From Balanoglossus misakiensis (Eukaryota > Animalia > Hemichordata): a stretch of DNA of 64,000 nt. Made by a program: the position numbers and the translations under genes. The notes below the pieces were generated by a model. It did not search any database, was not told the DNA's origin, and saw nothing but the letters and a program-made list of their open reading frames with translations. The DNA is taken from the NCBI GenBank assembly GCA_040954595.2, contig CM082578.2, positions 339,740 through 403,739 on the forward strand, in the 5' to 3' direction. This document shows, piece after piece, positions 18,654 through 52,974 of the stretch; within the stretch, counting starts at the first letter, position 1; every line of letters starts with the position of its first letter.

Positions 18654-18655
18654 TT

Positions 18656-18940: not shown

Positions 18941-19400
18941 CATTTGTAAATGTAAATGAAAATTGTAAATGTAAACTGGATAGTAGCGTACGACTTTGAA
19001 TTACCAAACACAGTATTCATAGAATAACGGTAACGTTGTCGGCCATTGATTTTAAAGATCTTAATACACCTCCGACACAGAGAAGGTGTGGCACTCGAGC
19101 AGAGTAGGTTTTTTTTTTCTTGCCCTTCTTTTTTGTTCTTTTTGTATTTCTTCTCCTTTTCGTCTTGCCCCCTTTCCCTGTTTGTTTTTTTCCTCCGGGG
19201 AAGGGAGTTTCGTCTCTTCTCAGTCTTCTCTTTTTTTGGCCCTTTGGGTTTTTTTCTCTCGCCTCTGTCGGCCCTTAGGGTGTGTTTGTCTTGTTTGTTT
19301 GTTGTTTCTTGATGGGTTTATTTCAAAGCGGGACACATCAGTCAATTTTCAGAAATGTTTTTGGAAGCAGTCGACACAACACATTTCATGACAATTTGAA

Positions 19401-22400: not shown

Positions 22401-23090
22401 AAGTTAAAAAATTGTACCAAAGCACATAGTGTACATAAGCTTTGTATTTCATTGAATGGCACAATCTGTAATTTAGACACTTTAACGAAAAAGAGTTTGA
22501 AATGTAATTTGAACGACCGTATTATAGAGACTCCAAAAAGTCAAGCAACACTGGAAAAAATGTTGAATATATTTAATCTAAACTGGGAAAAAATGTATGA
22601 CTTCACTTACAAGTTATCAATACATTGTAAGGCTAGAGCTTTTCAATTTAAATTACTTCACAATATTTTGTATACAAACAAACAGCTAAACAGGTACAAT
22701 CCACAGAAATTTCCAACTGCTCTTTGTGATTTATGTAAAGTGGAAACAGAGTCCATCGACCATTTATTTCATAGTTGCAATTGTACTACTGCTCTCTGGA
22801 GGGACCTACTGTTTACGTTGGGTATCCCTCTTAAATTGAAAAAACCACCATCAGTGTTATGTATGGTTTTGGGTGACCCAAACGAGACTTTTATAGTCAA
22901 TTTTATAGCAATGCAAGTTAGAATGTACATTTACTACTGTAAATTAAATAATCGAATTCCGAATATCACTGGGTTTATTGTTCAGCTCAAAAACATACAT
23001 GAAATTGAACTTAAGATTGCAACTGCAAATCATAAAATGTACTTTCATCTTAAAAAATGGTCATCACTTATGAGGTATATAACAAACTGA
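19401..23090 (+). CDS. LINE ORF2p (APE endonuclease, reverse transcriptase, C-terminal CCHC zinc finger), 1229 aa
   Basis: FNTRGL, FLQETH, LGGDLN, SRLDYFF, SDHSAV (APE); NWRPISL, DFEKAFD, QGDPLSP, FADD (RT); CDLC..ESIDHLFHSC. Lacks 8 aa (SGGNPKPW) present in the second copy. Confidence 0.95.
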   Translation: MDFSVLTFNTRGLRSFKKRKKLGCWLNSKNPTFTFLQETHSVKDDVHFWSTQFNGRCWFSHGTNNSRGVITIINNPNIIVNNSVTDDMGRFILIDVNLDNTPCILLNVYAPNIEKEHVIFLEEMYFLLVKYVTDPNTIVILGGDLNFTYNIALDRGKSIALLDRISDVFNLIDIWRVRHEEKRGFTWRRRRPYITQSRLDYFFISSDLQQQISSVQIIPGVDSDHSAVSLVYKSCQNERGPGYWKFNSSLIYDSTFKTILHDNIDEWISESTRLNDGVRWDFIKFKIRGFVIDYSKTVAKKRRQNLQNLELSVNFLEGLCSNHPTVQNYEMLESAKSDLEKVYDYITEGAVVRSRINWYEKGEKCNKFFLGLEKVNKRNSSISNLKKDEYTIIDNPKNILCEIKQFYAKLYSRCATNSNDVHYFLDANLPMLSENDKVLCEGPLTPGEVFSVLLSLPDNKSPGNDGLTKEFYVAFWPQVGNLVLNSLNYGYRTGEFSNSQKQSVITLIDNPGKDQLYLKNWRPISLMNVDMKLASKCLVKRIEKVLPCLIGDSQAAFVRGRNIGDYIRLIDEIFHHTCNADIPAILLAIDFEKAFDTVSWDYLYNTLSSFNFGVSFINWVKALYFNIESTVMNNGFGTGYFKLEKGVRQGDPLSPMLFILVLETLLHSIRNNRQISGINIGSVEIKESAFADDMTCFLSNENSVRIVFEMLTSFYNASGLKVNKDKTEAVWLGKWRLRKDEAFGVKWPTPTIKIVGIHFSYNEKIAQEKNIVTPVENLKKVLNMWKTRNLTIIGKVQVIKSLAISKLTYVLTHVIFPNEVIGRVHKLIYNFLWNGQDRVRRNVMIGEVGQGGLKMPNLDVMIKTKQVLLIKRLLNEECKHPWKHIVLHSLEKVGGKLLFKCNFRTNLLPVQVSSFINNCLVTWSEINIIPNTTDQVIWNNRNVLVGGKSVFYKAFSDAGFNFIPDMFTGFNRVSWSVFEQKGLNLNQKLKWLGLTLSVPNKLKNCTKAHSVHKLCISLNGTICNLDTLTKKSLKCNLNDRIIETPKSQATLEKMLNIFNLNWEKMYDFTYKLSIHCKARAFQFKLLHNILYTNKQLNRYNPQKFPTALCDLCKVETESIDHLFHSCNCTTALWRDLLFTLGIPLKLKKPPSVLCMVLGDPNETFIVNFIAMQVRMYIYYCKLNNRIPNITGFIVQLKNIHEIELKIATANHKMYFHLKKWSSLMRYITN

Positions 23091-23255
23091 GAATACCAGA
23101 TTGTTTTGTTTTTTTTTCTCTTCTTTCCATTAAGTTATGCTTCCAAAAAATAATTGTCAATTTTTTTTTTTTTTTTTTTTTTAAATCTACTTATGTATCA
23201 AAATGACTGTTTGTGTTCCCAATAAAAAGTATTAAAAAAAAAAAAAAAAAAAAAA

Positions 23256-29777: not shown

Positions 29778-29816
29778 TGCAATATATTCGACTCTGCGGG
29801 AATACGCACACTGCAC
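29778..29816 (+). repeat. Left (partial) terminal/subterminal inverted repeat
   Basis: TGCAATATATTCGACTCTGCGGGA, followed by ATACGCACACTGCAC, a further partial motif copy. Confidence 0.8.
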
Positions 29817-29848
29817 AAGATGTGGGAGGACCCTTGGCTTTGATTACA

Positions 29849-30080
29849 TTTGAATTTCGAGGAGTTCGATCGTGTTTTGACAACGTCCGACGACATTCGG
29901 GCGAATGATCGGGCGATCAACCACCCACGATCGACATTTTCTACTTTCATGTTGCATTTCGAGGAGGTCGATCGTGTTTTTGACGATGTCCGACGACATT
30001 CGGGCGTTGAAAATAATAAATGATCGGGCGATCAACCACCCACAATCGACATTTTCTACTGTCCTGATGTTGCATTCGTA
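29849..30080 (+). repeat. ~102-118-bp tandem repeat, ~2.1 copies, CpG-rich
   Basis: tttcgaggag.tcgatcgtgttttga..gtccgacgacattcgggcg..tgatcgggcgatcaaccaccca..atcgacattttctact occurs twice. Confidence 0.85.
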
Positions 30081-30808
30081 AGTGGTAAACCCAATGACCA
30101 ACAGAGCAAGGTCCGTTCCCTGCGTGTCGGATCACATCCCATCGCGCAACAATTTCGCTGGAGACTGTCGCTGCACTCACGCCATATGCACATCTTTGCG
30201 TTCTAATTCGAGCGGGAAGTGAGTTATCCCGTCTATGCTTGTTCCGGAAAACCCGTGTTATGACGTCAAGGTCATTCATTGATACAAGATCGCACTGTTG
30301 ACGTGCGACGCGTTTGCAAATCAAAATCCACGCAAACGATTTTCCGGGCAGGACTATGACATGTTCACAGGATGAATGCACTGCAAAAAACGTGATGTCT
30401 GCAGAGCATGTATGTGCCATCACCCATATGACAGGCTGCAGCTTCATGAACACGAGCTAGAAACAAAGGCCATGCGTATGTACGTGTGCACGTTCCGTGT
30501 CTTCTCCTTGCTATATGCATTCGCGTTCCGAAAACACACGGTAAAACTCATCAAAATGTGTTGTTATTTTATATGCGATGTCTGTACAGTGTGCACGCAA
30601 TTTTCGCCTTTTATGTGCCAAATAAACTATTGAAACTTCTGCTCTTGTCTTGGTATTTTTCTTCTTCTTGGCATCGCTATTAAACCTCTCTTGTACATAT
30701 ACGTTCAATTTTAGAGATAACGTGTAGGCCCCCTCAAAGAAAGCCGGTTGCCCCCTCAAAGAAAGCCGGTGTTGCTAGTTTGGCATTTGTTGCTAGTATT
30801 CTGAATAT

Positions 30809-31649
30809 CTCCCCTGTGACAGCACAAGTCCACGAGCACCTGTGGTCCGAGGTCTGGGACCGTCGATTTTAAGTGTGTTAAAAGTAATGCAAACTTAACC
30901 TCAAAACTGAATATTTTCCCTATACTTGAACATGCATAATTACAATAGAATAAATTAAAATAAAAGACTAAATGAAATCAGATCTTTAAACCAAATAGTG
31001 TTTTGAATAGAGCAATTACTACTCTATATCATATATAAAAGACAAAACAAATACATTAAAAAAAAATTTCCAAGTGTCCAAAAAAATTATTCTTTTGTTT
31101 TTATACATGTTAAGTCTATGGGCATTATTTCAGTCTATTTTGCAACAACATTTGGAATACTTAATGGCGTCCAATCTCAAAAGTGTAAACTTTTTTATAT
31201 TCTAGAACATCTCATGATGGTTTCTGGAAAGTTTCATCTTTGAAATGCTTAAAATAAAAAAATTCGAGGTCAAAGGTCAAAGGATAATGAAATCCGACAT
31301 AGGTAAACCAACAACTATAAGCAATGGCGAAGTTGACCTTGACCTTCGAATTTCAAAATTTTTTCACCACACCACATTAAAACAACTTATTATCAATCTA
31401 TCCTGTAATTTTCAGTGGTTTCCAACTATATTAAGGGGGTGACACCGCGTACCCTAAAAAGTATGTTTTTTTCAATAGGTTTTTCCGCAATAACTTTTCA
31501 AGGTCAAGTTCAAAGTTGGTCAAATTTTAGTATGTTATAAAACTCGCCGAGACCTTTCTGAAAATATATAGTTTGTTATGGTTTATGTAAAATTTAAAAG
31601 TACCTACCAAGAAATCCGTCCATGCACAATTTGGACTTGCCGTCTGGAG
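30809..31649. mobile_element. Possible non-autonomous MITE-like insertion
   Basis: Imperfect inverted ends (CTCC..GACAGCACAAGTCCA / TGGACTTGCCGTCTGGAG). AT-rich interior with GGTCAAAGGTCA / TGACCTTGACC motifs. Confidence 0.35.
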
Positions 31650-34119
31650 CAACTTGCATATACCCACCAAGGCATTTTTTTGGCCTTTCTAAAAATGTTT
31701 TTTTTTAAAGGCTGGGGTTAGACAGGGGACCAAAATCAATAACAACAACCTAAAAGATAACAAAATAAATCCAAACAATTTTTTCTAACCCTCTTTTTTT
31801 GGCCAAACAAGACATAAGTTGGGCATTGGGGGACTCGACCTTAAAAAACATGGAAGGGTTGACTTGTTTTTGTTGATATTTTTTGTTGTTGTTGTTTACA
31901 TGTTTACCTACATTGTATCAAAAGGAGGGGTAAAAAAAACATTGGCAAGGCAGTAGGGTTAGAGCCCGAAATCTCAGGTCCCCTAATGCCCGTTGGACCC
32001 TAATTAGGGTTAGGGTTAGGGTTAGGGGGTTTAAGATCACATACTGGTACATGTGTATGTTTTGTGAGTTGTGTGATGTATTTTGTAGTACAAGGGATGT
32101 CAATACATCCATACAGGAGTGCCTATATGAGCGCAAGTCTCTTTTCAGGATTTCTCTGTAACACTTCAAATTTTTGACATTATCGGTGTCATCCTTTCAC
32201 AAAAATTAATGACCCTCCCCTTGACAAGTGCCCAAAACGTAGCGGCCCTCCCCCAAACCGTTGCATGAGAAATGGTGACCCTCCCCCCAATCGCACCGGC
32301 CCTCCCCCCTTGTTAATTCTGACCAGGCCCTTACCGCGCGGCCGATGCCTCCCCTAAGTTGGCAGTAGTTTCGACTAGAATTTCCACTGCAAACCAAAAC
32401 ATGGTTCATGCACGCAAACTTATGTAAGAGTAAAAGCTCGGGTCATCAGTAACATGTGTCTGAAATATTGCATTTTCTTGTGTGAAAGTTTTGCCATCCA
32501 ACGTGCATGTAAGGCTGTGCATGAATGTACATTGTACTGCACTGTAAACTTGGACATTGCATTACCGCAAGGATTTAATTTCATTCCACCAACAAATCAG
32601 GGCCATGGGCAGATATTCACCCATTTAGGCCGAAACCATCACTTTTAGCTTTCAATAGTTAACATGACTTTAGTTGGGGTCTTAATCGGCAACGGGGCTG
32701 AAATCGGCAGCTTTACCTGCCGATCTTATCCCTTAGAAGCCATGGTTTGTTTGTCAAGGCATGCGCGGGGACGTATTCGGCATGGTGCCGAATTCGGCAC
32801 AACACCGGGACTAAAATAAAATGTTTGCTGATAAAAATGTTAATGGTGTTGCATCATTTTGTCGTTCATCCTGGAGTGACTGTGATCCTGTCAATCATAT
32901 TGCGACAATTATTTTTTTCAAGGTTGTACCAATAAAAACCTAACATATCCAATAGTGTTTGTCGTTTATTTATTATCTTATTTGGGGTGCCCCCGATGCC
33001 TACACATGTACATACTTCGTACTGTATTACGTTCGCTTCTGCTTTTAATCTCGTTTGAAATGCCGTTTTCTTCGTGTATACGTTTGCATTTGTGCCTAAT
33101 CTTGAAATGTTTTTGGGCTCACGTGATAAAACCGCGATTATTTGACCCTTTTTGTGAGATTTTTATTATGTGTTGTATTCTTTGGGTTCATTTTGTTTTA
33201 CTGATAAGGGTTTTCCTTCATGTCTACGTGATGCTAAGATGCTCTATGTGAATCGGTCTGGGCGGGGTTCATCGGTACGCTCATTTTGCGCAAGGCAATC
33301 TGCGCCACTCAACTAATATTTCTCTATGATCGGGTTGACATGTAGGATGAGTCGGTAGAAGGGAAAATAAACTTATAAGACCGTTTCATTTTATAAGCAG
33401 TCTCATTTAGAATGATGACCCATCGGATGCAATACTTATGCTAAAAGTATACCTACTGGCACAGAAATTTAAGTTCAACTAAGACTTCATCGTCACATTC
33501 GACCGAGTTAAAACATAAATAATCACTGTGGACAAATACTGTGGAAGTTATATCTCACGGTGGTATTTCCTCCCGAGTAGAATGGTTAAAAGCACTAATA
33601 GCTCGATAATCGGAGTGAGAATAACGAACAACATTTACACCTGTTTTCAGTTATTGCCTTGTTCGTTTTATCACAGACAATTTGACTACTAGTATTTTTC
33701 TGTGGTTTTATTCCATGAGAGTAGCGTGTTGACTGAAGAACTTGTGGAGATCATTATTGCCTACATTTGTGAACTCTGTTATAGCGCTCAACAGAAACAA
33801 ATTTTAAAACCTTGTTGACTGACATCTTAGTTGACAACCTTTTGCTTTCCCAAGTTGTAGGCCTACTCCATATATGATATTCATTTTGCAGTTTTTTCTC
33901 GAACAACTTCCTACCGATAAGGTCGTCACCCGGTGACCAGCACACAGACTTGTACACCGTAACGCCATTCAAGGCCGTGATGTCGGGCGAGACTTAAAGT
34001 TATCAGAAATTGATTAAGTTCGTGGTTACAACAACTCACACATATTCATAATTATAGGCCAATGTACCGAAATATCGTACGTTCGTTCAGTGCAGCACTC
34101 AAATGATATAGTTTTATAA

Positions 34120-34370
34120 TAGGTCTGGTATGTTAGTCTTGCCAGTTCGCGTTCTTATTGCCGAAAGTTGGGTCATTTAGCTCGCTATCATCAACGGTGT
34201 AGTATGGTAATGTGGTGATAGGACGGCGATGTAATAAGGGGTCAAAGGTGGAAGATCCTCGGAATCTGACGAAAGATGGGTGAGGGACGATCGTTTAGGG
34301 TAGCCTCGATTTCGTTGAGGACCGTCTGTAGCTCATCAACAGACACGAAGCGTCGACCTAGAACTTTTCT
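34120..34370 (-). pseudogene. Degenerate BEL/Pao integrase fragment (third family), not in the ORF track
   Basis: Manual translation gives KVLGRRFVSVDELQTVLNEIEATLNDRP, then after frameshifts THLSSDSEDLPPLTP..LLHRRPITTLPYYTVDDSELNDPTF. This is collinear with the integrase at 9940-10866. Confidence 0.8.
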
Positions 34371-34401
34371 GTGAGATATTTTAGTGGGGAGCGCGTTTTG
34401 G

Positions 34402-34408
34402 TATAAAA
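34402..34408 (+). promoter_or_regulatory. Candidate TATA box for the NRF1-like gene
   Basis: TATAAAA 150 bp upstream of the ATG at 34552. Confidence 0.35.
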
Positions 34409-34551
34409 CACCATTCTACGCGGCAATTTGCATACAATTAGTGTTAAACACACCTGTTCTCGCACGTTTAGTACAGGGTAAAGGTCACTTGTCCGTCGGA
34501 CAAAAGACTTTTATTTTTCACTTGTCCGGGCTGTCCGATCTTCTCTATGTC

Positions 34552-35808
34552 ATGATGCAGTTCCCAAAGAAGTACCAAAGGCAACAGTGGCAGTCACTGA
34601 CTGCACACTTTGACAAATTTCACACGAAAACACAGATTGAAGCTGCAGTTGTTGCAACGTTTTTCGATCCCGTCACCAAGAAACGGATTTTTGTCATCCA
34701 TGGCACCCAGCCACTTGCCAGAACCCTTGAAGCAAACGTTTCAACATTTCTGACTGTACCAGCGCATCCTAGTGATGATAATGATCAACAACCCCCAGAA
34801 AGCGTACTGCCAGATCTAAGAAACCACCATAAGAAGAAGCTCTCTTCGTTCACTTACTATGATGTAAGAGAACTTTTACCAACATTGGTAAAATGCACCA
34901 CAAATCGTGCCCAACCTTTGTGGGACAGACCAGACATGAAGCCAGTATGGTGGCCAGCCGAAACACCGTACTGCAACCCCAGTCGGCCCGGTAAAGTGGT
35001 TGCTTCAACGTCTTCGTGGGTCACGCGCATGAAAGACGTTGCTAAGTCATGTTACCAGTATTATGGACAGGTCGAGTTGACAGGTACGTACCATTTAAAC
35101 GGTTATTTAATTAGAATGGTGAAAGTTTGCTAGACATTACTCCTGAGAATGTATAGATTCAGCAATAAACAAAATCATCCGTTTTACACGAGCTATACAT
35201 TCTTTTGAGATGAAGGCCTTGAAAACGAACATCGACTGACAAAGTTTAATTAACCACAGTACCGAAAATGACGTTTTTTTGTTAAAAGTGGTTTTTAATT
35301 TTGTTCAGCTGGTCTCTTGGTAAGTACTTCTCTGCAAAACAGTGAGAATATTTTGGCTTACTAAACTTGTTCTCACTTTTTCACAGGCGATGATGAAGAC
35401 AGTAGGCCTACTGATTGTCCGACTGGTGAGGGTGCAGCGGTTACCCGAGACCCACAACTTGAAAGCGATATTGCCCAATTTTTCTCAGGCAATAATGAAG
35501 TCAGTAGGCCAACTGATTGTCCGACTGGTGAGGGTGCAACCCAATATCCACAACCTGAAAACGATATTGCTGGGCATTCTATTATAGGTAAGCGTGTCTT
35601 TTATTGCAACTATAATGTAGATCGTGAAGAGTCATAGTCTACAAGGTAAATGTTTTTAGCCTTGACTGTAAAAAAGAAAATGTAAAAATCATACACCAGG
35701 GTCCAGTACATACATTTTTGTTCTATTCGCATCATACAGTAAAATTATTCGTGCAGATTCAAATTCGAAGTAAATTCCTCGATATCATCACTTGTTGCGC
35801 TTTTCTTG

Positions 35809-35839
<31 letters not shown>

Positions 35840-38624
35840 TGCGATGCATCGTACGTGTCATGTGAGACACTGTCGGGAGTTTGGACTTGGGTTTGTCGTG
35901 TCGAATTCACCTATGTCAAATTTATAAGCCACAGTCCCTCAAGAAAGACGGTCGGGAATCGCCCATTGTTCGGACGTGCGAATGAGGGGATTAGCTGTAG
36001 GATGCGCATTATGGTCACGTGACCACCTTAGAGTTGCGTTTTTTCCCCTTGGAAGCAAGCGGCAGTCGCCCTACTATCTATGATTTTCCCGATATGTTAG
36101 TTATGTTTGTGGAGGAACTGTGTATAAGCCAACTGACATCATTTTGTAGGTTTATATGATTCCGCTGGCAATTTTCAGGATCTAATACATTTGAATGCAC
36201 CATACGATACGTGACAATTTTATATTGAGTGTGCTCCGAGAAAAGTAACAGCGCAAAAATAGAGGACAGCGCGACATTGCACATTTATACGATATCGGAT
36301 ATTTATCGTCTAGTATCGTCTAAAACATTAAACTAGACTGTACTTTAACAACAACTTTGCCTGCTTCCCGACTATGTCGGACCTCAAAAATATCCGATAG
36401 TATCGATACTATCGATACTAGAGTCTAGTATCGTCTAAAACGTTAAAGTAGACTGCACTTTAACAACAACTTTGCCTGCTTCCCGACTATGTCGGACCTC
36501 AAAAATATCCGATAGTATCGATACTATCGATACTAGAGTCTAGTATCGTCTAAAACGTTAAAGTAGACTGCACTTTAACAACAACTTTGCCTGCTTCCCG
36601 ACTATGTCGGACCTCAAAAATATCCGATAGTATCGATACTATCGATACTAGAGTCTAGTATCGTCTAAAACGTTAAAGTAGACTGTACTTAAACAACAAC
36701 TTTCAATACTAGACGATACGTGGTGTACTGACCTCTTGAGCCGTCAGTGTGGATTTTGTGTTTTTAACGTTTGGCATTTTCAGTCATGTGTATGTGTACA
36801 TTTACCCAATTTAGTTCTACAATATTTACAAAGGTCATTTTCATCTTTTCTCTATAAAGGCACAAACACAGAAGTTGGAGCAGTGCTATCATTCATACAG
36901 CATGAATCAGATCCTCACTACCTCACACAAGATCTGAGTACAATAAATTTTGAGGATCTTGGTAAGAAATATCCCTATTACAATGTATTACTTTCTTTAT
37001 CACAGTGAAACCTCTCCAAGTTCTATGTTTAACCTCGACCATGTGGTGGAGTGATCGTGATTTAATATGTCTTAGCAAACTTAAATATACTTAAATATAC
37101 TTAAACAACAAGCCAACCAACAGGGGAAAACGGGTTGTAACTGGAGAGATACAGACTGAATTTCTTGCTTACAATCCTTTAATCAAAACAATCACTCTTT
37201 ATCTGTCCATTCAGTATTTATCTCTCCTGTTACAAGCAGTTTGTTCCACTCTGGTCAGTTTGATTGCTATCATTGTCATTATGAATTTTGCAATTACTTA
37301 AGCAATAAAACACCCCCAGCCATGGTATACCACGAGATTTTTGACCAGTTCACGACATATACGCACGAGCGATAGCGAGTGCGTATATGGAGTTGAACTG
37401 GTCAAAATCGAGTGGTATACCATGGCTGGGGTGTTTTATTGCTATTATATTATGCCAGTATATTGAAACTTTGCATATAACATTTTAAAAAGGCATTTTC
37501 TTTGACTATGATATATGACTGTGGTATATGGCTAATATATCACGGTCACGTGTCGTGTCTCGACCAATCAAATAGCGTGATTTACACCATCAATATACGG
37601 TATAATATAATAATTATTTAATAATAATGGTGTTAATGATTTTGTATTTGAATACACATAGTCATTTAAATGTGACTAGGACAATTATTATAGTTTAACC
37701 TTTGTTCAGTGGTTGTTTCATGTACTTCTTGTATGGAGAGAGGGATACCTCAGTGTTAAAAAATACCAAATTTTGCTATGTGTCTGTAAAAAGGGGTAAA
37801 AGCCATTATGTAGTCAATAGGTTTTTAATTTTTATGTTTTACCTGTGTTCTGATGACTTAAGTAAAACTATTGAATAATGTCAACCAATACACTTCTATA
37901 TTTCATTTTCTTTTCAGGTTCACATCCCATTCACCCATCACCCCAGCCAGCAACTCCATCAGCCAACAGTTCCATCAACACAAGTGCAGAATTATCACCA
38001 GTGTCTTACACACTACCACAGCAACAGCCAGCAGCACAAATCCAACAGCCAGAATCACCACCAGCAGCACAAATCCAACAGCCAGAATCACCACCAGCAG
38101 CACAAATCCAACAGCCAGAATCACCACCAGCAGCACAAATCCAACAGCCAGAATCACCACCAGCAGCACAAATCCAACAGCCAGAATCACCACCAGCAGC
38201 ACAAATCCAACAGCCAGAATCACCACCAGCAGCACAAACCCAACAACCAGCATCACTACCGCCACGCCGCAGTCAACGGTCAGGAAGGAAGACCAGAAAA
38301 GTTCAAGATGATGAAGAACTGCAACAAGAGCTGGCAACCCTGAAGAAACTCCACCAAATGAAGAAATCAGGGGACCTTCTTGACCTGGTGCTCAGTTGCC
38401 CAATTCCAAAAAAAAAGCGTCGGACAAACCCATTCCATCTAGTGGCCCTAAAAAGACAAAATCCCACTGAGTACAACAGATTATTAACTGCATTTGAAGC
38501 ATCAGAAGTTAGTGTGAATGTGGTTCTCCAGTTCATGCACCAGCACATAAAACAGTTCAAGAACCTGCAAATCGATCATGCAGAACAAGTTTTGGGCTTC
38601 ATTTGTCAAAAACTCAACTTATGA
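34552..38624 (+). CDS. NRF1/EWG/P3A2-like DNA-binding-domain protein, 4 exons (34552-35083, 35387-35587, 36860-36961, 37918-38624), ~513 aa
   Basis: Exon 1 reads VRELLPTLVKCTTNRAQPLWDRPDMKPVWWPAETPYCN..SWVTRMKDVAKSCYQYYG, which parallels NRF1 LRAFIP..YSTGRGKPGWGKESCKPIWWPEDIPWAN..SWTQALRTIVKNCYKQHG. The upstream AAVVATF..FVIHGTQPL parallels NRF1 QAIVLC..FKVFGAAPL. All three introns are GT-AG, phase 1, and the frame stays open to the TGA. Confidence 0.82.
36309..36705 (+). repeat. 115-bp tandem repeat (~3.4 copies) in intron 2 of the NRF1-like gene
   Basis: TCTAGTATCGTCTAAAAC at 36309, 36424, 36539 and 36654. Each full unit has the palindrome CGATAGTATCGATACTATCG. Confidence 0.93.
37301..37612. 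mobile_element. Palindromic MITE-like element in intron 3
   Basis: 37301-37443 is a near-perfect 143-bp hairpin centred on CACGAGCGATAGCGAGTG. A second imperfect inverted pair lies at 37443-37466 / 37590-37612. Confidence 0.75.
38028..38258 (+). repeat. 33-bp coding minisatellite (PAAQIQQPESP x6 plus one degenerate copy)
   Basis: CCAGCAGCACAAATCCAACAGCCAGAATCACCA repeated in frame in the last exon. Confidence 0.95.
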
Positions 38625-40583
38625 GTTGATATTTTCATTGTCTTTTAACTCTTTTTCCCATTCTTGTCTTTCTGTGTTAATTAATGTACATTTCAAAACG
38701 CAGTTATCAATCTGTTGTATTCTGCGGGATTTTGTCTTTTTAGCTGGGAAAATGGGAATTTGGTCAAAACTCGGTAACTTAATTATTGGTCAGATTGCTT
38801 TGCAAAGTGGTGTGTACTTTATTGAGACATCATATAGATTTTTTTGTGGTGATATCATAAAATGACTAATTTTGGTGAATTTTTTATCTTTTTCCCAAAA
38901 TCTTCTTTTACAAAAAAACTTTTCAAATTCATAACAAAAATCATTTGAGGGTGTGTAGAGGTTTTTCATTTTTTTTTTTTTTTGAATCATGGTAAGAATT
39001 CAATAGTATATTTTGGGGTGATTTTTGCCATTTTTGGTCCAAACTCTCAGAACCCTCTACCCCCATTGCTTTTAAATTTGATTTGCAGGTTACCAGGTGT
39101 GTTCTCATAATGATTTACAAAATCTATGATGAAAGTGTCAATATTTTGTGGGGGCAATATCTTGTATTTATGGTGCATACTTTCCAATTTTGATTTGAAA
39201 AAACTATATTTCTCAAAGTGTTGGGCTGATTACAAATGTACTTTAGAATTTAAGTTGTGAGTTAATGGGATGGGGTTCTTTAAAATTGTAATGGAATCAA
39301 ATCGTAGGTATTTCGGAATTTGGCTGTTCTATTTGGTGTATGTACAGTACACGTGCCATTAGCAGCTTATGGGTCAGTGTTTGCCCATTGATCTCTCTCT
39401 ATGTGTGTGTGTGTCTGTCTGTCTATGTACTTCAGTGTAGACTTTTTCTTGATTAATCCCTAAATGGGACCAGTGTCCTTGACGCTGTTTTTGACAGTTA
39501 TCTTTGAGTAGTGATTGTTTTTGACAAATATGAACGGTATATTAAAATAACACTAAAGTCCACCTCGGGTGTGTGGTGTACTTCTTTATTCAATTTTATA
39601 TACATGTGTGCCTGTGTAATGATTTGTGCATTTCTTCTTTATTAACAAGTTTATCGGTGTACGGTAGTTCTCTTTTTTAAGGATGTGGTGGCCCTGAGAA
39701 GGGCCGTTTGGTATGTGTATGCAGAGCATAGTCTCTGAGACGCTAAAAAACTTCCATGAAAACACCTCCGTAGTTGTCCTCTGATGACTGAATTTCTTCT
39801 TTAGTACCCTGCGAACACACCTCCTATACATTCCATCTCCCCATAGATGTATATGGCTGGTCTACATTCTCATTCTGATAACAAAATGGAAATTCGACAC
39901 GTCAGTAACAAATACAATAAACTGTAAAACACCACTTTCTCTTATGCATCTTGTTTTGTTTTGTCAGCACAGCAGCAATGTAAAACCATGCAGCAAGAAT
40001 TTTACTGATACAGATGATAAAGCATCATGTTAAAGTTATCTTTTACCGTTTTCATCAGCACAGTTATAAAATCGCATGATTCCAAGCATCTCATGTCTTT
40101 GGGAATATGGGTCATCTTGTTACCTCGTGTAACACATCATCCATGGATTTGCCCTCTTCATTATGGACAGTTTGTCAGTACTTCTCAAAAACTGAAACAA
40201 AATAACAGACAGACTTTATATGACGGCAGTCATGGGGAGTGACTGTGATGATGGTCTACCGTTCATAAATCTGGAAAAATATAGTTTTTGTTTTCTTGAA
40301 GTGTCTAATGCTGCAGTCACACAATCAACTGAAACAGTCAGAGAATTAATTAATAGTATTCTGTGTAATGTAAGTTGACCACAATGAAAGCAAGAATGGT
40401 CCTAAATCAATATAAATCCAGATGGTTTCAGCTATAACTCATTTGAAAAAATGTCCGAGCTATACAGTTAAAGTGCGGTTTTCAGAACAAACAAAAGACC
40501 TTATACTTTATATCAGTCATTGCTTTCTGTTCAATTAAATAGAAAAATCGGAAAAACAAACTTATCTATTTTAAAACCTTGAA

Positions 40584-43500
40584 CTACAAGTAGTTCAGGT
40601 GACTTTTCTTCTTTTGATTCCAGATTGCAAGGAACAGTCTGACATGGAAGATGAAATTATCTGGGGTCATATAAGATACTTGTGCCTTAATTTTCTGTAA
40701 TGCTGCATTGCTCTGCTCACAGATCTGGGTATTTATGTTGGCCAAACTTCTGTTGTCCTTGTACTGTTGCAGGCTATAACCTGATGAACAACTGATCAGT
40801 AAAATATAAAAGAAGATTCTTCTGTGAAAATTTTAACAGTATAAAACATAAACAATTTTTTTCAGACAAATTGATATCGTTCCTTAGAAAATTGACACAC
40901 ATGCCCTGAATACATTTCAGATACCTGATTAACAGAGCTTATGAGCCAGTCAGAAGTTGTAATTTGAGCAAACCTGTTTATGTCACCAGTCCGGGTTATG
41001 TCTCTGAGTGGAATAATAGAATTGACCAATCGGTGATTGCCATTGTGAAATTTGATTTTATCAGAGCAAAATCCTTTCCCTGTCTCCTACCTCCTAACTG
41101 ACTCCAAATATGATGTGGTTAACTGGTCGTATACTTCTTAGCTGTTCCAGTCAACTAAGCTCTGCAATTGCCAAACATAGATGATTTGAAAAATATTCTT
41201 TTGAGCTTTTTAATCTGATACTCACCCAATGTGGTTTTTCCAATGGAGACGATCCACTAAGAAAACTGTCTTCATGAAATAGTTTGGTTCTCTGAAGAAA
41301 GACAAAAAATCACTTCATTAGTTCTAATCTTTATATTCTTGCTGAAAGGAGTAAGCAACGTCAATTCATCAAATTCTTGATTTTTTTTTTTTTGGGGGGG
41401 GGGGGGTAAAACACAAAATTAACCATATGACAAGCTGACATCTCAATATGAAAAAATTGTAACAAAGTGGCTGCCAGACCACCATCTTGGATCATATCGC
41501 AAAAAAAATTGAGTTAAAGGCAAGGGTGGGCAAGCATAATTGAGCATAAAATAAAGCTTAGCCACCCTTCTCTTAAGTTTAACAGAAGTGTGGTAATCAC
41601 ATTAACATACAAAACAGTATATCAAGGTTGAAATAAGACTTACCGATTTAAACAGTACTGATGCAGCCGACATGCATTGTCATATATGACAATGGCTGGA
41701 GGTTGTCTTAGTCTTGTTGTCATAATGTTGAATGGCACTTCGGGTGACTCCACTTGCCTCATAGCCTGGAAGCCATAGCAGAACCCATGTTGACAGAACA
41801 CAGTGAAAATGCCAGGTGATAACGTAGGGTGTTTGTTGGAGATCTTTTGGCAAGTGTCATCACCATGTGCAAGTCTGTCTTTGTCTTGCCGGTACAGAGG
41901 TTTCCTATTAAATGAAAAGTGAAAGCATGATAACTAAGAGAATGGCAATGGCATGCATAGCACATGGGTACATAAACTTCCATTTTGAATACATATAAAC
42001 ATGTATACAGAAAGGTATGTCTAAGTGGGAAATGAAAATTCACAAAAGTAATGAAAATAATGCAAAAAGTGGCAGCTCTAGAGGCTTAAGACAGACTTCA
42101 ATTAACTTTCAAGTTACAGTGAGATATCCTTACCCATGAAGCTTTGGTAGGCAAGGGAAGCAAGCTACAGGGTCTTCTATTGGATCTGGATATTGCACAG
42201 TACTATCAGGTCCCTGGTTACATACTTTGTATGAGCTCCTCACTCGTAACAACACATCTCTAAGAAGGCGACGCACTTCTCTTGGGATACCATGAGGATT
42301 GTGCCCGAAATGTGACAGCAATTTGAAAATAAGAGGAGCATCTTGCTGTACAATTTCAAGTTCCCCTTGATGTCTGCTGTCAAATATATCGAGTCCGTGT
42401 ATTATTTTCTTGATGACATGTTTAGCCTGTGAATCTGGGGTCAATTGCAGAAGAGCACTTGCAGGCGAGTTTTTTGACAAATCTTGAAGAAATTGGCAGA
42501 ACTCCTTTGGGGCTAGCAGATTTCTTCCGTGTCCACTGACGAGTTGGAGAAATTCCATAAGCGAATGGAGGTGACTGTACTTTCTCATCAAATTAATCAT
42601 CACTGTGTACTCAAGGGGTGTAAGTGGTTTCTCAGCTGGCTTGTTGGTACTACAAAACTGTAATAACAGTTTCCTGACCTTGGCATTTGGTATATACACT
42701 CGGTCACAGTGACGTGTACCAATATCCAAAGGCTGGCCTTGGTCACGTGATGCCCTCTCTGGGTCTGGAAGTTCTTGCAAGAGGCGTTTGTTCAGTCCTA
42801 CACTCGTACCATCACATATCAGAACAGAAGGCTGCAGCTCACATATAGGGCATTGGTATACAGTGCCATAATTTATGTCCAATAGCCTTGCAAATGCATT
42901 CCAGGCATTCCTAAGTTTGTGGTATTTCAAAGAAACAGACTCTGATAACATAGCATGTTTTTCAGAGTAGGCCCTATTTAAGAACAGAAAGAAAGATTAA
43001 TGTCAGGTGATTGCCAGGAGTGAAAGAAAGTTTATAATGTTTATCTGTTGTAACATTTTTATACTGTACCTTCTCTGATAAGAGCCCCCAAATTAATGGG
43101 GGGTGGGGGTGAAAAGAATACAACCTGGTACATCAAGAAATGTGTTTTTGGTGGGCTTCCTAATCACCCTGTAAATTATATCATGGGAAAAATGGCGCTC
43201 TTGAGCATGTGACAGGTCTAAACAATTATCGGACTGGTAAAAGCAACAATGAACTTTTGAAATTTGATGACTGACTATATGGGTAACAGCCTTCCCTAGA
43301 GAATATTTAGACAAAAATTTTGCTTACCACCCCTTCGTTCAAGTATTAATGGGTAATTTCAGTATTGATCTTTCCTTGCTGAGCTACCAAATACATAAGT
43401 TCCCTAGTCAATGATTATATTTTTAGAAATACAAAGTATATGTACTTACCTATGGAAAGATGCCAACGGATTTCTGGACTCTACCATCAAATGAAGGTAG

Positions 43501-45938
43501 GAGAGTAATAAACTGTAGTGAATAATGTCCTTGTTGTTCAGATTAAACATCAAATCTCCATGCCCATCATAATGCAACCTGCACATACATGGACCAACAC
43601 TTGGACGATAGTACACTGCAAGGAAAATAATGACTATGTTAATATAATTACCAATACATGTAGGAGATCATTAGATAAGTGGGATGGAAGTTGCGTGTGG
43701 TCGAACGGTGATTCACTATATAGCCATATGTAGAATAATATTCACGGTGTCTTGTATCAATCAAACATTTTAATGGAAAAATGGCAGTGATCCAATGCAA
43801 CCTTAAACCAATGGTACAGTAAATAAGGTTAACTTACCCTTGATAGTTTGTTCCTCTCCTTCTACATAAACATGCTGAAGTGAATGTGTCTCATAATACA
43901 CAATGGCATCTCCAACAAGCCAATGTTGTTGTACAGGGTCATCAACATCCCATGCATGTCCATGTTGACAGGTAGAATGGGGGCCAGCACTTGGTATCTC
44001 GGGAATTAGATTATGCTGTACAGGCTGTTCTCCACTTTGTTGTTGTTGAAACTTGACCTTCAGAGAGTCATCAAGAGGGTATGAGATTGGCTTAAATGAC
44101 ACGCTTGGGAAAGTACTTTCTTTCAAAGTGCGTTCAGTTTCTTGAATCTCAACCTCATTTTGTCCACACCATATTCGGTATTCTTCAACATGGTCACATG
44201 TGGTTCTACCATATGCGCAGGTCTCACAGCTAAGTTTTTTACCAACATGTTTGTTCCTCAGAGATATTATATGTGTGTCTTCACCTATGGTAACACTAGT
44301 CAGGAACGGATTCAATGACAGGCAATCAACAATGACTGATGTGTCTGCAGAGTTGGGGTCCACTTCAACAGGTACATCAGGAAAAAGTTCACTTGCTGCC
44401 CAGGCATGAAGACAGTATTTATTTTTTTCAGTTGTGATGAACTCATCAAAGTTTTCTGGTATCCCACGCTGAGATGAGGATAATCTGGCTGCTTGGATTA
44501 ACCCATCCTGACATGAACATGTATACAGGAACTCCTGAGACGTACTCTGCACACTGTAAAATCGCAGGTTACGTTTGACAATAACGTGCTGTGATATCAA
44601 CTGCCCAGTCTCAATTTCACAATCTGACAATACATATGTATTGCCAGATGATAGCTCCCACTTTCTGTTCTGGGCTTGTAACTGATGCAGGTATTCTTCC
44701 CTTGCGTTATTGCCAATTGTACCAACTACTGAAGATATTCTGAAGAGAAACAAACAAAACTTGGTCACATATAAACATTTATGTTCACTGATTCCTCTAA
44801 AAAAGTATCTATTGTTTTGAAAGAGCATATCAATAACTAAATAAATTTTCATTGTACTCAACACATATGATACTAATTAAAAAAGCAGATCTGACCTAAC
44901 CATATTTAAACACAGAAATGTAAAAAGAAATTAACAATAGGCCAATAAAGTGTCATGTGTGATGGCAATTTTAGAGAGGCAGTGCTAGAGAAATTGATAT
45001 TTGACTAAAATGATATACAAACCATTACATTACCAGCAGCTAACCTCCCCCCCCCCCCCCCATTTTTATCTCAAGTAATGTACACACAAGGCAGATAAGT
45101 CCCCCATAAACCTGGCTTCCTATCAGGTGTTTGCTGATAACATGCCAAATTTAAAGTAGGGATACATAACCAAAGTAAGCTGTTGTAAAAATCAGTGAAA
45201 TTTCCATATTTGTGTTCTTGGGGCAATTTTGGCCGTTTTTGGTCTTAAATCATTTTTTTCTCTGATTGATTTGAAATTTGGGACTCAATTTTTATAACAC
45301 ATAAATGTTTGTGTACAACTTCTATTAAATCCTGATATCACATTTTTTTGTGCTTTTCTTTGTTAAAAATAAAACTAAAACCCTAGTTAGAAGGCCTAAC
45401 TCCAGTCTATGGTCTCCAGTCTTGGTGATCGAGTGCCAGAGATCAATTCCCCTGCTATGACTGATTACCCTTACAGAGTATTCATTGGCAGGATTTTTTT
45501 GGTTTGAAATAAAATAGTAGTTGCTGAAAACACAGGTCTTCAGGTACTTCCCCCCAGTCGTCCCACAATGCAATGCGGTTTTCAAGATGGCGGTTAATAC
45601 AGTTTTGCCCTGAGAGAGAAGGGAGGACACGATCACCCCGCCGGGATAAATCAATCAAACTATTAAAAGAATTAAATTAATGACACCTATCAACGCCTGT
45701 TGTCCGACATTTAATGAGCGACTTTCGTACCTGAAAAGGGCAAATTAATACCGGCCTTTGTCTCCTTCACGATCACATGATACTGCACGCTATGTGTTAC
45801 AAACAGTGCAACTCTAATATATACTTACTCAAAACGTTGGCGCTTTACGCTTTTAGCGATCTCCTGGTGTGGCCGCTTCTTTCTTCGCACATTCGATGGA
45901 TGGGATTCAAAAAATCGACGACGTTGTTTGCGATCCAT
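40584..45938 (-). CDS. KDZ (HMGXB3/Dileera-like) transposase, 7 exons (45938-45829, 44739-43838, 43615-43450, 42973-42134, 41904-41644, 41291-41226, 40791-40584), ~850 aa
   Basis: Manual splicing: six GT-AG introns with matching phases, 2553 nt open to TAG. Motifs: basic N-terminus (MDRKQRRR..RRKKRP), YTCSC..CLH, CETC..CDH, CMCRLHYDG..MFNLNN, AWNAFARLL..CPIC..LICDGTSVG, PGIFTVFCQHGFCYGF..ESP, VIYDNACRLHQYCLNREP, VDRLHWKNHIGCSSGY, INTQICEQSNA..SYM. Confidence 0.88.
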
Positions 45939-46041
45939 TCTCTATTGAAATGTAATCTATAATAACGAAGTACTGCCAAACTATATGCATGACGTAACGC
46001 TATTTAAACGTTTCATTTCATATCGTTGAGGGCGCCAAGAG

Positions 46042-46127
46042 TCCCGCAGAGTCGAATATATTGCATTGTGCGTGAATTCCCGCAGAGTGCCATTTATTGC
46101 ACTGTGCGTGTCCCGCACTTTGGCCCC
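46042..46127 (-). repeat. Right terminal inverted repeat region with three CCCGCA-initiated subrepeats
   Basis: TCCCGCAGAGTCGAATATATTGCATTGTGCGTG / TCCCGCAGAGTGCCATTTATTGCACTGTGCGTG / TCCCGCACTTTGGCCCC. Confidence 0.78.
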
Positions 46128-46811
46128 TCACTCTTGTCTTTTCGACACCCTTAAATACCTCACCAGTGTAGCCAGGTCTAGATAGAAACATTTGAACGGC
46201 AACAGCTAACAAACTCAGCGTAATTCAATAAAACGCCCTAACACAGCCTGAACTCGGATAATGTGTTATCCCAAAATTCATTCCGTGGAAAATAATCACT
46301 GGTCTGTTTACGTATTTCAGCCGATTTTCCAAGGACTACGGCAACCCGCCAGAAGTGAGTAGCCTGCTAATGAGATCTCCACAACATTACGTAATGACGG
46401 TCAAAGTCCGATGCCCCAGTGTCAGTCCTCAGCCCACCAAAAATGCGAAAAATATTACAAAAATCTTCTTCTCAAAATCGACGTAGCCTAGGACCTTGAA
46501 ATTTGGCACAAGGGATTTTGGCCACATGGTCTACAAAAATCGCGAAAAGAATGTACATTCCCCCATTAACGTGCAAATTAGGTCAATTTGAAAATTTCGC
46601 TCGATTATAGCCACCAAGTCACGTGACTAATTACAAATTCAAAGGGCAGGTGCACTAGTACTCATGGGCCCCAATCATCGTGCCAAACTTCATAGGCGCA
46701 GGTGCCGGAATTTCAGAGAAAAACGGGAGCAAAAAAACGACTCAAGAAGAAAGAAGAAAAACTCCAGCAATAACAGAAGGGGACCAAGCGCCTGAGGGCG
46801 CTTGGTCCCCT
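46128..46811 (-). mobile_element. Hairpin-terminated non-autonomous element (Helentron/HINE-like), partial
   Basis: Perfect 15-bp stem with 4-nt loop at 46778-46811, next to a GAA-rich microsatellite. It abuts an A-run of the satellite and has the same layout as the element at 62753. Confidence 0.6.
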
Positions 46812-49800
46812 AAATAGCCATTTTGGCCATATTTTGACAAAATGGTACATTTTTAAAAAATCATAAAAAATAAACTCTTTTCTTCATTTTCGGAAATATT
46901 ATGGAGCATGAAGTGTCGTTCTCTTGTAAAAAGTGCTGCAAATTCCAGAAAATGTGGTCTAATTTGAATCACCCAAGACAAAATTACCATTTTCGACTTG
47001 TTTTCGAAAAATTGTCTTTTTTACAAAATAAATAAGAATAAATTCTTTTCTTAGTTTCAAACGGGTAGAGATACTTTCCACACGGGTTTTCTAACATTGA
47101 ATTCCCGTTTATCAACTCAGATTTCCTACAGCATAAGTCGGCTAAAACCCTGACATTCTAGAGCAGAAACAGTTGCACACTGATAACGTTGAACAAGTCG
47201 ATTTTTCTACGGCCTGGCACGGCTAAATCTCGTCACAATATGACAGACACTAGCGTACGTTAGCAACGGTGATCAAGTCAGATTTTCAACGGCATGGGTT
47301 GGATAAAGCCCCGGCACTCTAGAGCAGAAACACGCGTACAGAGACCACGTTGATCAAGTCTGATCTCCTACGGCTTGGCTCGACTAAAACCCCGGCACAC
47401 TATGACAGACACTAGCGTTCGTTAGCAACGTTGATCAAGTCAGATTTCCTACGGCATGGCTTTGCTAAAGCCCTGACACTCTAGAGCAGAAACACGCGTA
47501 CAGAGACCACGTTGATCTACTCACATTTCCTTCGGCCTGGCACGGCTGATGCCCCGGCACTATATATAGGACACAGACTGGCGTAAGTTAACAACGGTAA
47601 TCACGTCGGGTTTCCTACGGCCTGGCTCAGCTGAAGCCCCGGCACTCTAGAGCAGAAACAGGCGTACATTGACCACGTTGATCAAGTCAGATTTCCTACG
47701 GCGTGACTCGGCTGGTGCACCGGCTCTATATGACACAGACTGGCGTAAGTTATCAACGGTGATTACGTCGGATTTCCTACGGCCTGGTTTAGCTGAAGCC
47801 CCGGCACTTTAGAGCGGAAACACGCGTACATTGACCACGATGATCAAGTCAGATCTCCTACGGCCTGGCTCGACTAAAACCCCGGCACACCATGACAGAC
47901 ACTAGCGTTCGTTAGCAACGGTGATCAAGTCGGATTTCCTTCGGCCTGGCTCTGCAAAAGACCCGACACTCTAGTACAAAGACGTTGGCTAAGTCGGGCA
48001 AACCGAACAGGGAAAGTCACAGCGGGTCAACACTCGACATTTGTTCCGGTAGGACTGCTTTATTGCCTGTCAATTTATAGAGAAAGCCCGAATTTAACCA
48101 GGGCGTTTCAAACACCGACGTTAGTTGGGGGCACGGCCTGCAGTACTGCCGGGTAAGCTGACATCAGCGTACCGCATATAATGTAGGGGGGGGGGGGAAC
48201 AGAACGGTTAAATACTACATTTATCAGATATCAGCTAATTTTGGACAATCATCTAAAATGTAAATCATCTTTTCATATTTGGATATCTGATGAAGTATGA
48301 AATTTCCAATATATGTAAAAATGGTGCTGATTATAAAAAATGCACTCTGAATGAGCTGATTTAATACAAAATTGCGTTTTATTCGTTTTTGCACCAAAAA
48401 GGTCATTTTTAGGCAAAACATTCTTTATTTTTTTAATTCGGTGACCTGATCATATATAAGCAATTGCTTGCATGTTAAAAGTTTTTATGACTTTTAAAAG
48501 CAGTGACACTGGCGGCATTCAACACGAAAATAACAATTTTAACCACAATTTGGTCAAAATGGTAAATTTTTGAAAATTACAAAAAATACCTGTTTTCTAC
48601 ATTTTCGGAAATCTGATGGAGTATAGAATGCTCTTCGTATATATATATCGATACAAATTCCACAAAAGACCGTCTAATTTGGCTCACTGCAGACAAAATT
48701 GCGTTTTACCAAATTTTCCTTGAAAATGTCATTTTTAGAAAAATAAAATAAAAAAACCTTCGTTCTTCGAATTTGGTGCCCTGATCATATATGATATGTT
48801 GATTGTATGTTAAAACTTTCGACCACTCCAAAAATGCAGAGATATTGACGGAATTCAAGAAAAAATAGCCATTTTGGCCATATTTTGACAAAATGGTACA
48901 TTTTTAAAAAATCATAAAAAATAAACTCTTTTCTTCATTTTCGGAAATATTATGGAGCATGATGTGTCGTTCTTTTGTAAAAAGTGCTGCAAATTCCAGA
49001 AAATGTGGTATAATTTGGATCACCCAAGACAAAATTACCATTTTCGACTTGTTTTCGAAAAATTGTCTTTTTTACAAAATAAATAAGAATAAATTCTTTT
49101 CTTAGTTTCAAACGGGTAGAGATACTTTCCACACGGGTTTTCTAACATTGAATTCCCGTTTATCAACTCAGATTTCCTACAGCATAAGTCGGCTAAAACC
49201 CTGACACTCTAGAGCAGAAACAGTTGCACACTGATAACGTTGAACAAGTCGATTTTTCTACGGCCTGGCACGGCTAAATCTCGTCACAATATGACAGACA
49301 TTAGCGTACGTTAGCAACGGTGATCAAGTCAGATTTTCAACGGCATGGGTTGGATAAAGCCCCGGCACTCTAGAGCAGAAACACGCGTACAGAGACCACG
49401 TTGATCAAGTCTGATCTCCTACGGCTTGGCTCGACTAAAACCCCGGCACACTATGACAGACACTAGCGTTCGTTAGCAACGTTGATCAAGTCAGATTTCC
49501 TACGGCATGGCTTTGCTAAAGCCCTGACACTCTAGAGCAGAAACACGCGTACAGAGACCACGTTGATCTACTCACATTTCCTTCGGCCTGGCACGGCTGA
49601 TGCCCCGGCACTATATATAGGACACAGACTGGCGTAAGTTAACAACGGTAATCACGTCGGGTTTCCTACGGCCTGGCTCAGCTGAAGCCCCGGCACTCTA
49701 GAGCAGAAACAGGCGTACATTGACCACGTTGATCAAGTCAGATTTCCTACGGCGTGACTCGGCTGGTGCACCGGCTCTATATGACACAGACTGGCGTAAG

Positions 49801-52800: not shown

Positions 52801-52974
52801 ATTGCGTTTTACCAAATTTTCCTTGAAAATGTCATTTTTAGAAAAATAAAATAAAAAAACCTTCGTTCTTCGAATTTGGTGCCCTGATCATATATGATAT
52901 GTTGATTGTATGTTAAAACTTTCGACCACTCCAAAAATGCAGAGATATTGACGGAATTCAAGAAAAAATAGCCA
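46812..52974 (+). repeat. Composite macrosatellite, 3 nearly identical units
   Basis: Periods of ~2052 and ~2051 bp (48224, 50276, 52327). Confidence 0.97.

Follow-up and report, generated by a model that had tools for sequence, protein, structure and literature searches.

An element of about 16 kb, at positions 29778-46127 of the window, carries an NRF1-like gene (gene A) and a KDZ-type transposase gene (gene B), arranged tail to tail between inverted repeats. The window is the whole stretch of 64,000 nt analyzed from Balanoglossus misakiensis (GCA_040954595.2, CM082578.2, 339,740-403,739 of the forward strand), and all positions refer to it. Since the same gene pair recurs in the genomes of acorn worms and of a brittle star, the element is likely a jumping gene carrying an NRF1-type protein. 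We regard it, with moderate confidence, as a two-gene cut-and-paste KDZ transposon (Zisupton-like, CxC4) whose NRF1-like partner probably dimerizes, binds the 36-bp end repeats, and helps to recruit or regulate the transposase.

Ends and flanks of the element

The inverted repeat of the original prediction is present as a perfect 24-nt pair (29778-29801 and 46042-46065, 100% identity); when the element was resampled 100 times under a Markov-1 model, a perfect 24-bp pair arose in none of the resamples and a 20-bp pair in 5. Its part as the true outer termini was rejected, as the right copy belongs to a tandem array (46042..46127, minus strand) of some 2.5 units of a subrepeat of about 36 bp; it is the innermost unit, and the array reaches approximately 46127. 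The left end (29778..29813, plus strand) comprises the perfect arm and the beginning of the next subrepeat. About 60 bp of outer sequence present at the right end are missing at the left, where only the inner repeat part is found and the satellite abuts at 29778. The outer left sequence was likely lost at this satellite junction, so the copy may supply proteins yet not move itself.

The noncoding left arm (29814..34551) contains short direct repeats at 29850-30076 and nested higher-copy repeats at about 30750-33200, and the approximately 2 kb upstream of gene A show no CpG depletion. To the right of the element, repeat DNA of another kind extends over about 685 bp (46128-46811), after which the satellite returns, shifted by 294 bp in phase. 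The locus interrupts an array of satellite units 97-99.8% alike, and this satellite, described earlier as gene-free, carries LINE-type and Pao-type retroelement ORFs. A scan of this copy for target-site duplications of 6-9 bp found none fitting the element ends, the left flank looking rearranged; the only 8- to 9-mers were satellite self-similarity at 46838-46841. Contigs from two DNA runs of one sample covered the left arm and both genes with even depth. A joint linking 30132 to 46075 hints at a short derivative of the element.

The transposase gene and the NRF1-like gene

Both genes, originally predicted to be convergent, multi-exon, and apparently intact, yielded models of four and seven exons with no internal stop under predicted splicing. 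Gene B, on the minus strand, encodes 817 amino acids in seven exons separated by six GT-AG introns. The coding part of exon 1 (45475..45485), with a predicted start codon and a phase-2 donor, is the least certain; exon 2 (43838..44739) encodes a SWIM-like CxC...CxH motif and a second C/H cluster, exon 3 (43450..43615) a CxC4-like cluster, exon 4 (42134..42973) a cysteine cluster, the conserved D414, and a helical insertion, exon 5 (41644..41904) the KDZ core with the conserved D715, and exon 7 (40584..40791) the conserved E774 and the stop; exon 6 lies at 41226..41291.

The assignment to the KDZ group was upheld. In single-exon scans, exon 5 alone matched KDZ PF18758 (E 0.00039, 20.6 bits, below the 26.6 cut-off) and exon 3 matched CxC4 PF18717 (18.2 bits, below the cut-off). 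The spliced model was 45-47% identical to acorn-worm proteins over nearly its full length; a 45%-identical relative scored 34.3 bits for KDZ, above the cut-off, and CxC4 was at or above the cut-off in 5 of 19 relatives. D414, D715, and E774 were present in 15/15 aligned transposases and form a putative catalytic triad. The SWIM-like C78xC80...C113xH115 was conserved in the alignment; exon 2 had no Pfam match, SWIM included, and its ESM Atlas match to SWIM (0.85) is a weak lead only. Neither CxC7, F-box, nor other extra Pfam domains were found in gene B or the 20 relatives scanned. A transposase-NRF1 fusion was rejected, the genes lying on opposite strands and no such fusion occurring among 25 proteins scanned. 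KDZ transposases have been taken as the source of HMGXB3, a link stated by no paper found in the literature search.

About 875 nt past the transposase stop, on the same strand, lies a histone 3' UTR-type stem-loop (39665..39710, minus strand; Rfam RF00032, 38 bits, cut-off 34); behind it come a run rich in purines and an AATAAA. No histone coding remnants were seen upstream of it when short ORFs were read by eye, no Rfam match was obtained in 10 related loci, and the structure may be no more than a captured fragment without function.

Gene A, on the plus strand, encodes 513 amino acids in four exons with three GT-AG phase-1 introns. Exon 1 (34552..35083) contains the start codon and the NRF1-type dimerization (MADS-like) and DNA-binding domains (aa 1-177). 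Exon 2 (35387..35587; acidic, with an internal 102-bp duplication) and exon 3 (36860..36961) are delimited by predicted splice sites, and exon 4 (37918..38624) includes a Q/P/S-rich 33-bp repeat, a basic RRSxR motif common to five relatives, a C-terminal extension, and the stop. Membership in the NRF1 family was confirmed by profile (Pfam PF10491 Nrf1_DNA-bind, 54.4 bits, cut-off 23.5), by sequence match to 8k4l (E 4.9e-14), and by structure: the AlphaFold2 model (mean pLDDT 84) best matched human NRF1 8k4l (Z 13.1) and 8k3d (Z 12.7, rmsd 2.7 over 97), followed by SRF (Z 6.1). ESM Atlas matches of exon 1, used as a lead only, were Nrf1 clusters at 0.86-0.88 and a mostly mollusc cluster at 0.91.

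Gene A shares with host NRF1/EWG/P3A2 (PF10491; 8k4l, 8k3d; PMC10810270) the dimerization and DNA-binding domains, the WWP core, and the equivalents of R206 and N242. It differs in its identity of only about 24-26%, in its C-terminal half, in the absence of the first NRF1 helices, since its start corresponds to about human residue 100, and in being multicopy and KDZ-linked. Across 10 aligned rows, R106 (human R206) was nearly invariant and N142 (N242) invariant; the Amphiura partner has no N242 equivalent. The human R244 position is occupied by serine (S144), leaving two of the three base-reading residues.

Recurrence and descent of the gene pair

The comparison covered 33 KDZ matches of 355-1133 aa and 23 of 150 NRF1-like matches, the HMMER scan with gene A exon 1 having returned 152. 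Adjacency was read from RefSeq accession order on the same sequence, coordinates and orientation being no part of the evidence. In Ptychodera flava, KDZ proteins XP_070537884-887 are followed by NRF1-like XP_070537888 on one chromosome of 39,757,568 bp, and KDZ XP_070541358 by NRF1-like XP_070541359 on one sequence of 39,134,633 bp. In Amphiura filiformis, NRF1-like XP_072021476 precedes KDZ XP_072021477 on a 3,074,194-bp sequence. Among the RefSeq proteins retrieved, a consecutive KDZ partner was thus present at 3 of the 8 named NRF1-like loci, in two phyla, whereas 5/8 named NRF1-like and 7/10 named KDZ loci had none; one of the five unpaired NRF1-like loci lies on the same 4.77-Mb scaffold as a KDZ gene, at a distance of 144 accessions. 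The chance expectation in P. flava is 0.0018 pairs, with P(>=2) of about 2e-6, assuming independence. The transposase therefore co-occurs with an NRF1-like gene elsewhere, and the earlier proposal of a two-gene mobile unit with NRF1-like cargo or accessory protein gained support from these three loci; mobility of the present copy is an inference.

Further searches returned no additional pairs. The remaining NRF1-like matches examined lay on contigs whose lengths agreed with none of those carrying the KDZ matches (compared by eye), and a word-index search for gene A exon 1 among longer proteins gave 0/805 candidates. The metagenome scan with exon 5 returned 10 loci of 1.4-9.7 kb with an NRF1-like match in 0/10, the best of which stop no more than 300 bp from the 3' end of the transposase; the scan with query P0153 gave no relatives. 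Three marginal 15-residue matches in viral contigs were disregarded.

KDZ proteins at least 90% identical were located on three chromosomes in Glandiceps talaboti and two in P. flava, a sign of recent movement. Such dispersal of near-identical transposases, the recurrence of the pair on different P. flava chromosomes, and the break in an array of nearly uniform satellite units all speak against a pair of host genes that was domesticated and no longer moves, or two elements adjoining by chance, with inverted repeats belonging elsewhere. That account, for which the intron-rich, intact genes, the lack of a target-site duplication, and the disturbed ends could be cited, is very unlikely.

The paired transposases were 38-46% identical to each other and the paired NRF1 domains 19-36%, with frames open; the linkage is therefore old, and both genes have been kept open. 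At this divergence the hydrophobic and DNA-contact core is invariant, implying long purifying selection that would not be expected had a host NRF1 copy entered KDZ elements by a single capture in early deuterostomes and then ridden along as a neutral passenger without function for the element. We consider such a passenger very unlikely, even with many retrieved KDZ loci having no partner, the short metagenome loci included, and with 4/12 of the differences listed (incompletely) for a diverged exon-1 copy falling at third codon positions, as under neutral decay.

NRF1/EWG is commonly regarded as a single conserved host transcription factor. In the tree, 10 partner-type rows were split from 27 others, including canonical NRF1, with branch support of 98/96; the partner-type proteins form a long-branch group, and long branches can cluster falsely. 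P. flava has five divergent NRF1-like paralogues on five different sequences. Consistent with the original prediction, gene A is no syntenic single-copy host gene, and its orthology to host NRF1 was rejected on the replaced R244, the separate tree group, and the multiple paralogues. The phylogenies of the two genes were compared as well: on four firm pairs the correlation was not significant (r 0.21, 9/24 permutations), and r of 0.90 (4/120 permutations) was reached only by adding an unproven fifth pair. The transposase tree was made of retrieved relatives only. The NRF1 tree is rootless, and given this, capture of NRF1 from the host fits equally well as a transposon origin.

Role of the partner and known systems

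The motif TGCGGGA-N0-4-ACGCAC, picked post hoc after inspection of the ends, occurs three times in the 64 kb, always at the element ends, and in none of 100 shuffles. It contains NRF1-like half-sites and was the sole repeated one found, located at both ends; the canonical NRF1 site is absent from the end repeats. Since the transposase start also lies about 550 bp downstream of the right-hand array, the motif cannot separate end binding from a promoter role. A KDZ transposon in which the NRF1-like protein acts as a transcriptional or chromatin regulator, at promoters or against silencing, with no part in cutting or joining, is possible but rather unlikely. It would fit the CpG-rich 5' regions of both genes beside a CpG-poor transposase body, the long Q/P/S-rich middle of the gene A protein, which resembles an activation region, the binding of host NRF1 to promoters of GC-rich DNA (PMC10810270), and the fungal KDZ elements with the epigenetic cargo TET/JBP (PMC12730594); the repetition of the motif at two ends weighs against it. 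The zinc clusters of the transposase could bind DNA unaided, which counts against the need for a helper.

In the end-binding transposon that we favor, both genes would be transcribed convergently from the CpG-rich ends. The NRF1-like dimer would then read a site altered from that of host NRF1, since it retains the equivalents of R206 and N242 but has a substitution at R244. The transposase would cut at the ends through D414/D715/E774 and insert the element elsewhere. A more speculative proposal, to which we give little credence, holds that the NRF1 fold is an ancient dedicated end-binding subunit of the animal KDZ lineage, from which host NRF1/EWG/P3A2 was domesticated, and that the stem-loop may give a histone-type nonpolyadenylated mRNA end tying transposition to S phase.

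The existence of a multicopy, transposon-linked NRF1 branch in a brittle star as well as in acorn worms means that this fold travels with KDZ elements, and explains paralogues annotated there as "Ewg-like" or "uncharacterized." The intact two-gene system allows a direct test of end recognition, poorly known in the KDZ group, and brings within reach of testing which way the exchange between NRF1 and transposons went. As the original prediction had supposed, no pairing of a KDZ transposase with an NRF1-like gene was found in the literature; KDZ elements with extra genes are already known.

Zisupton, reportedly described by Bohne et al. in 2012, is a multi-exon animal DNA transposon with a KDZ core, CxC4, a SWIM-like motif, and terminal inverted repeats. 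The present element resembles it in its many exons and KDZ core, and its CxC4-like cluster, SWIM-like motif, and inner arm pair may correspond to the other features. Zisupton is also treated in PMC12730594, PMC9297572, PMC11588098, and PMC12062965; CxC4 and a SWIM finger with the KDZ domain are given as its canonical set (PMC11588098). In contrast to the 817 aa here, its nematode and fish proteins reach 1400 aa (PMC9297572), it has no separate second gene, and its 8-bp target-site duplication (PMC12730594) was not seen at this copy with its rearranged-looking left flank. The fungal KDZ elements described in PMC12730594 (TET/JBP-bearing Kyakuja, Dileera, and Zisupton) and PMC11588098 (Cryptococcus KDZ1 and two-ORF KDZx1) are similarly large with further genes aboard; here the host is an animal and the extra gene encodes a protein of the NRF1 fold. 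"Nrf" appears nowhere in the main text of PMC12730594. For PIF/Harbinger, it has been suggested that a Myb-like protein distinct from the transposase attaches to subterminal regions and brings the transposase there (PMC4055405). The partner likely binds the element ends as that protein would, and the proposed likeness to Ping/Pong extends to a DNA-binding protein working with a DDE transposase on subterminal repeats, with an unrelated transposase family and an unrelated DNA-binding fold.

Two predicted genes and their products

Two genes lying tail to tail were predicted inside the candidate element (29778-46127): the plus-strand gene A, or partner (exons 34552-35083, 35387-35587, 36860-36961, and 37918-38624; 513 amino acids [aa]), and the minus-strand gene B (exons 45485-45475, 44739-43838, 43615-43450, 42973-42134, 41904-41644, 41291-41226, and 40791-40584; 817 aa). 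The three introns of gene A (GT-AG, phase 1) and six of gene B (GT-AG) leave spliced frames free of internal stops, and the original prediction of two apparently intact, multi-exon genes thus holds for models of 4 and 7 exons. Homology backs gene B (Glandiceps talaboti LOC144440592 is 45% identical across aa 181-812, and two further relatives are 46-47% identical from aa 6 or 15 through the end), while its 11-bp first coding exon and exons 2-3 of gene A were predicted from splice signals alone. Repeats within introns (36308-36703, 37301-37443, and 43677-43760) comprise a 115-bp tandem array, a palindromic MITE of very high depth, and a further repeat whose depth is also high.

Profile and structure-model evidence indicate that gene A encodes a divergent NRF1-fold protein, as originally proposed. 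PF10491 matched at 54.4 bits (cut-off, 23.5), aa 6-176 aligned with human NRF1 8k4l (E = 4.9e-14), and the structure model (mean pLDDT, 84) matched NRF1 with Z scores of 13.1 and 12.7, compared to 6.1 for SRF, a structural match likewise mentioned in the NRF1 structure paper (PMC10810270). The base readers named there are R206, N242, and R244, with spacers of 0-7 bp tolerated (PMC10810270); gene A retains the first two as R106 and N142 and has serine at the R244 position. Its nearest matches (40-48%) are acorn-worm proteins sharing its plan of N-terminal domain, low-complexity middle, and basic RRSxR motif near the end. In a careful tree (37 rows out of 152 matches), 10 partner-type rows fell on one side of a branch with support of 98/96, and a similar group (n = 20) appeared when 145 rows were placed in a quick tree; both trees are unrooted, and the grouping may be partly false because the branches are long. 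P0104 and P0145, two large proteins outside the KDZ-linked group, combine CXXC zinc fingers with a divergent Nrf1 domain.

A 296-bp segment (38448-38743) bordered by a 48-bp inverted repeat (88%) contains the final ~58 codons of gene A, and five relatives stop ~25-30 aa past the RRSxR motif, so the C-terminal tail may derive from an old insertion.

Gene B encodes a KDZ-type transposase. Its single exons match the KDZ and CxC4 profiles with scores under the cut-off, which its relatives exceed for one or the other. D414, D715, and E774 were conserved in a 15-row alignment, and conservation extended to the cysteine clusters and to a SWIM-like motif. The 33 relatives come from sources including acorn worms, a brittle star, lancelets, and a limpet, and KDZ proteins at least 90% identical are spread over three chromosomes in G. 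talaboti and two in Ptychodera flava.

Recurrence of the pair in other genomes

In RefSeq practice, consecutive accessions generally denote neighboring gene models; adjacency was read from accession order. Lookups covered 23 of 150 listed NRF1-like matches and 7 of 33 KDZ matches. Nine of the NRF1-like matches looked up carry RefSeq accessions: eight fall in the partner group, and one, a lacewing protein, lies outside. Of the eight, three have an accession immediately next to that of a KDZ protein from the same sequence: in P. flava, XP_070537888 directly follows XP_070537884-887 and XP_070541359 directly follows XP_070541358; in Amphiura filiformis, XP_072021476 directly precedes XP_072021477. 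XP_070548960 shares a 4.77-Mb scaffold with the KDZ proteins XP_070549104-106 at 144 accessions' distance, and the other four had no KDZ neighbor among the retrieved KDZ proteins. From the KDZ side, 3 of 10 named loci had a consecutive NRF1-like partner. The chance expectation in P. flava was 0.0018 consecutive pairs.

Paired transposases are mutually 38-46% identical and paired NRF1 domains 19-36%, low values which mark the link as old. The divergences of the two genes showed no significant correlation across the four firm pairs, the present locus among them (9/24 permutations); with an unproven fifth pair added, the figure was 4/120.

Element ends, copies, and surrounding repeats

The originally noted 24-bp perfect inverted pair was found with both arms (29778-29801 and 46042-46065), and no pair of that length arose in 100 Markov-1 resamples of the element. 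On the right, a ~36-bp unit is repeated ~2.5 times up to ~46127, with the arm as its innermost copy; next come ~685 bp of other repeats, after which the satellite resumes with its phase shifted by 294 bp. The satellite is broken off between 29779 and 46811. On the left, the inner arm abuts satellite directly, so ~60 bp of the outer end appear to be missing. No target-site duplication was detected in a scan of 6-9-mers at the element ends. Given these features, the junctions are those of a rearranged copy, not of a clean insertion. TTAGGG occurs four times in the left arm (~32005-32030).

Contigs of two DNA runs from one sample, which may be the one that the window itself came from, cover pieces within 30065-45058 with 0-2 differences each, at depths (which do not equal copy number) of 199-242 and 717-1237; diverged or variant gene A copies in that sample (34531-34932 and 37571-38020) reached 46-50 and 156-180. 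These at most hint at several near-identical copies holding both genes. A contig joining 30132 to 46075, present in both runs at element-like depth (283 and 1284), may represent a short non-autonomous derivative that shares the element's ends.

A histone-type 3' stem-loop (39665-39710, transposase strand; Rfam 38 bits, cut-off 34), the sole such match in the window, lies ~875 nt past the gene B stop. It is followed by a purine-rich run, which we take to resemble a U7 site, and AATAAA (39643-39638); no histone coding remains were seen among the short ORFs upstream. One run's contig connects it with the transposase 3' end (39607-40725). Across roughly 39490-39700, contigs ~90-95% alike reach roughly fivefold the element's depth, so the stem-loop may be a captured piece of multicopy sequence, e.g., a histone repeat flank.

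The 2051-bp satellite, which contains an 81-bp subrepeat block and is duplicated internally (~70%), makes up ~45% of the window (found across 1-59096) and flips orientation near 1-1021 and 52974-53161. Two LINE-type copies (18654-23252, plus; 59097-62780, minus) with endonuclease, RT, zf-RVT, a 1232-aa ORF, and a poly-A tail are 100% alike across 3319 nt and share one satellite position but face opposite ways. Pao/BEL-type pieces (1022-8033 and 9943-11371) include a perfect 1541-nt inverted duplication (2495-4035/4694-6234). Short repeats at 46439-46811 and 62794-63183 (72% alike, GC-rich hairpin at the end) may be Helentron-type.

A probable two-gene element and its proposed helper

A two-gene element is the simplest account, and we consider it very probable that both genes travel as one KDZ element. 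That they do so with the partner as an end-binding helper is favored with moderate confidence. The transposase would contribute a D-D-E core, and the partner keeps its dimerization domain and a DNA-reading surface, the specificity of which would be altered. The single repeat specific to the ends holds TGC/TGCG half-sites in inverted arrangement, and this motif occurs three times in 64 kb, always at element ends; it counts as a lead, since it was chosen after inspection and the three occurrences are copies of one unit. The main rival reading gives the partner a purely regulatory role. In Balanoglossus misakiensis the unit is a putative mobile element.

The element is a real, intact, and apparently undescribed KDZ transposon variant; the literature retrieved on Zisupton and on NRF1, erect wing, or P3A2 with transposons yielded no description of the pairing, which original Zisupton descriptions or Repbase may contain. 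The canonical Zisupton set has been given as KDZ, CxC4, and SWIM (PMC11588098); gene B has sub-cut-off KDZ and CxC4 matches and a SWIM-like motif. The proposed end-binding partner would find its precedent in PIF/Harbinger, for which a Myb-like protein has been proposed to attach to subterminal regions and recruit the transposase (PMC4055405).
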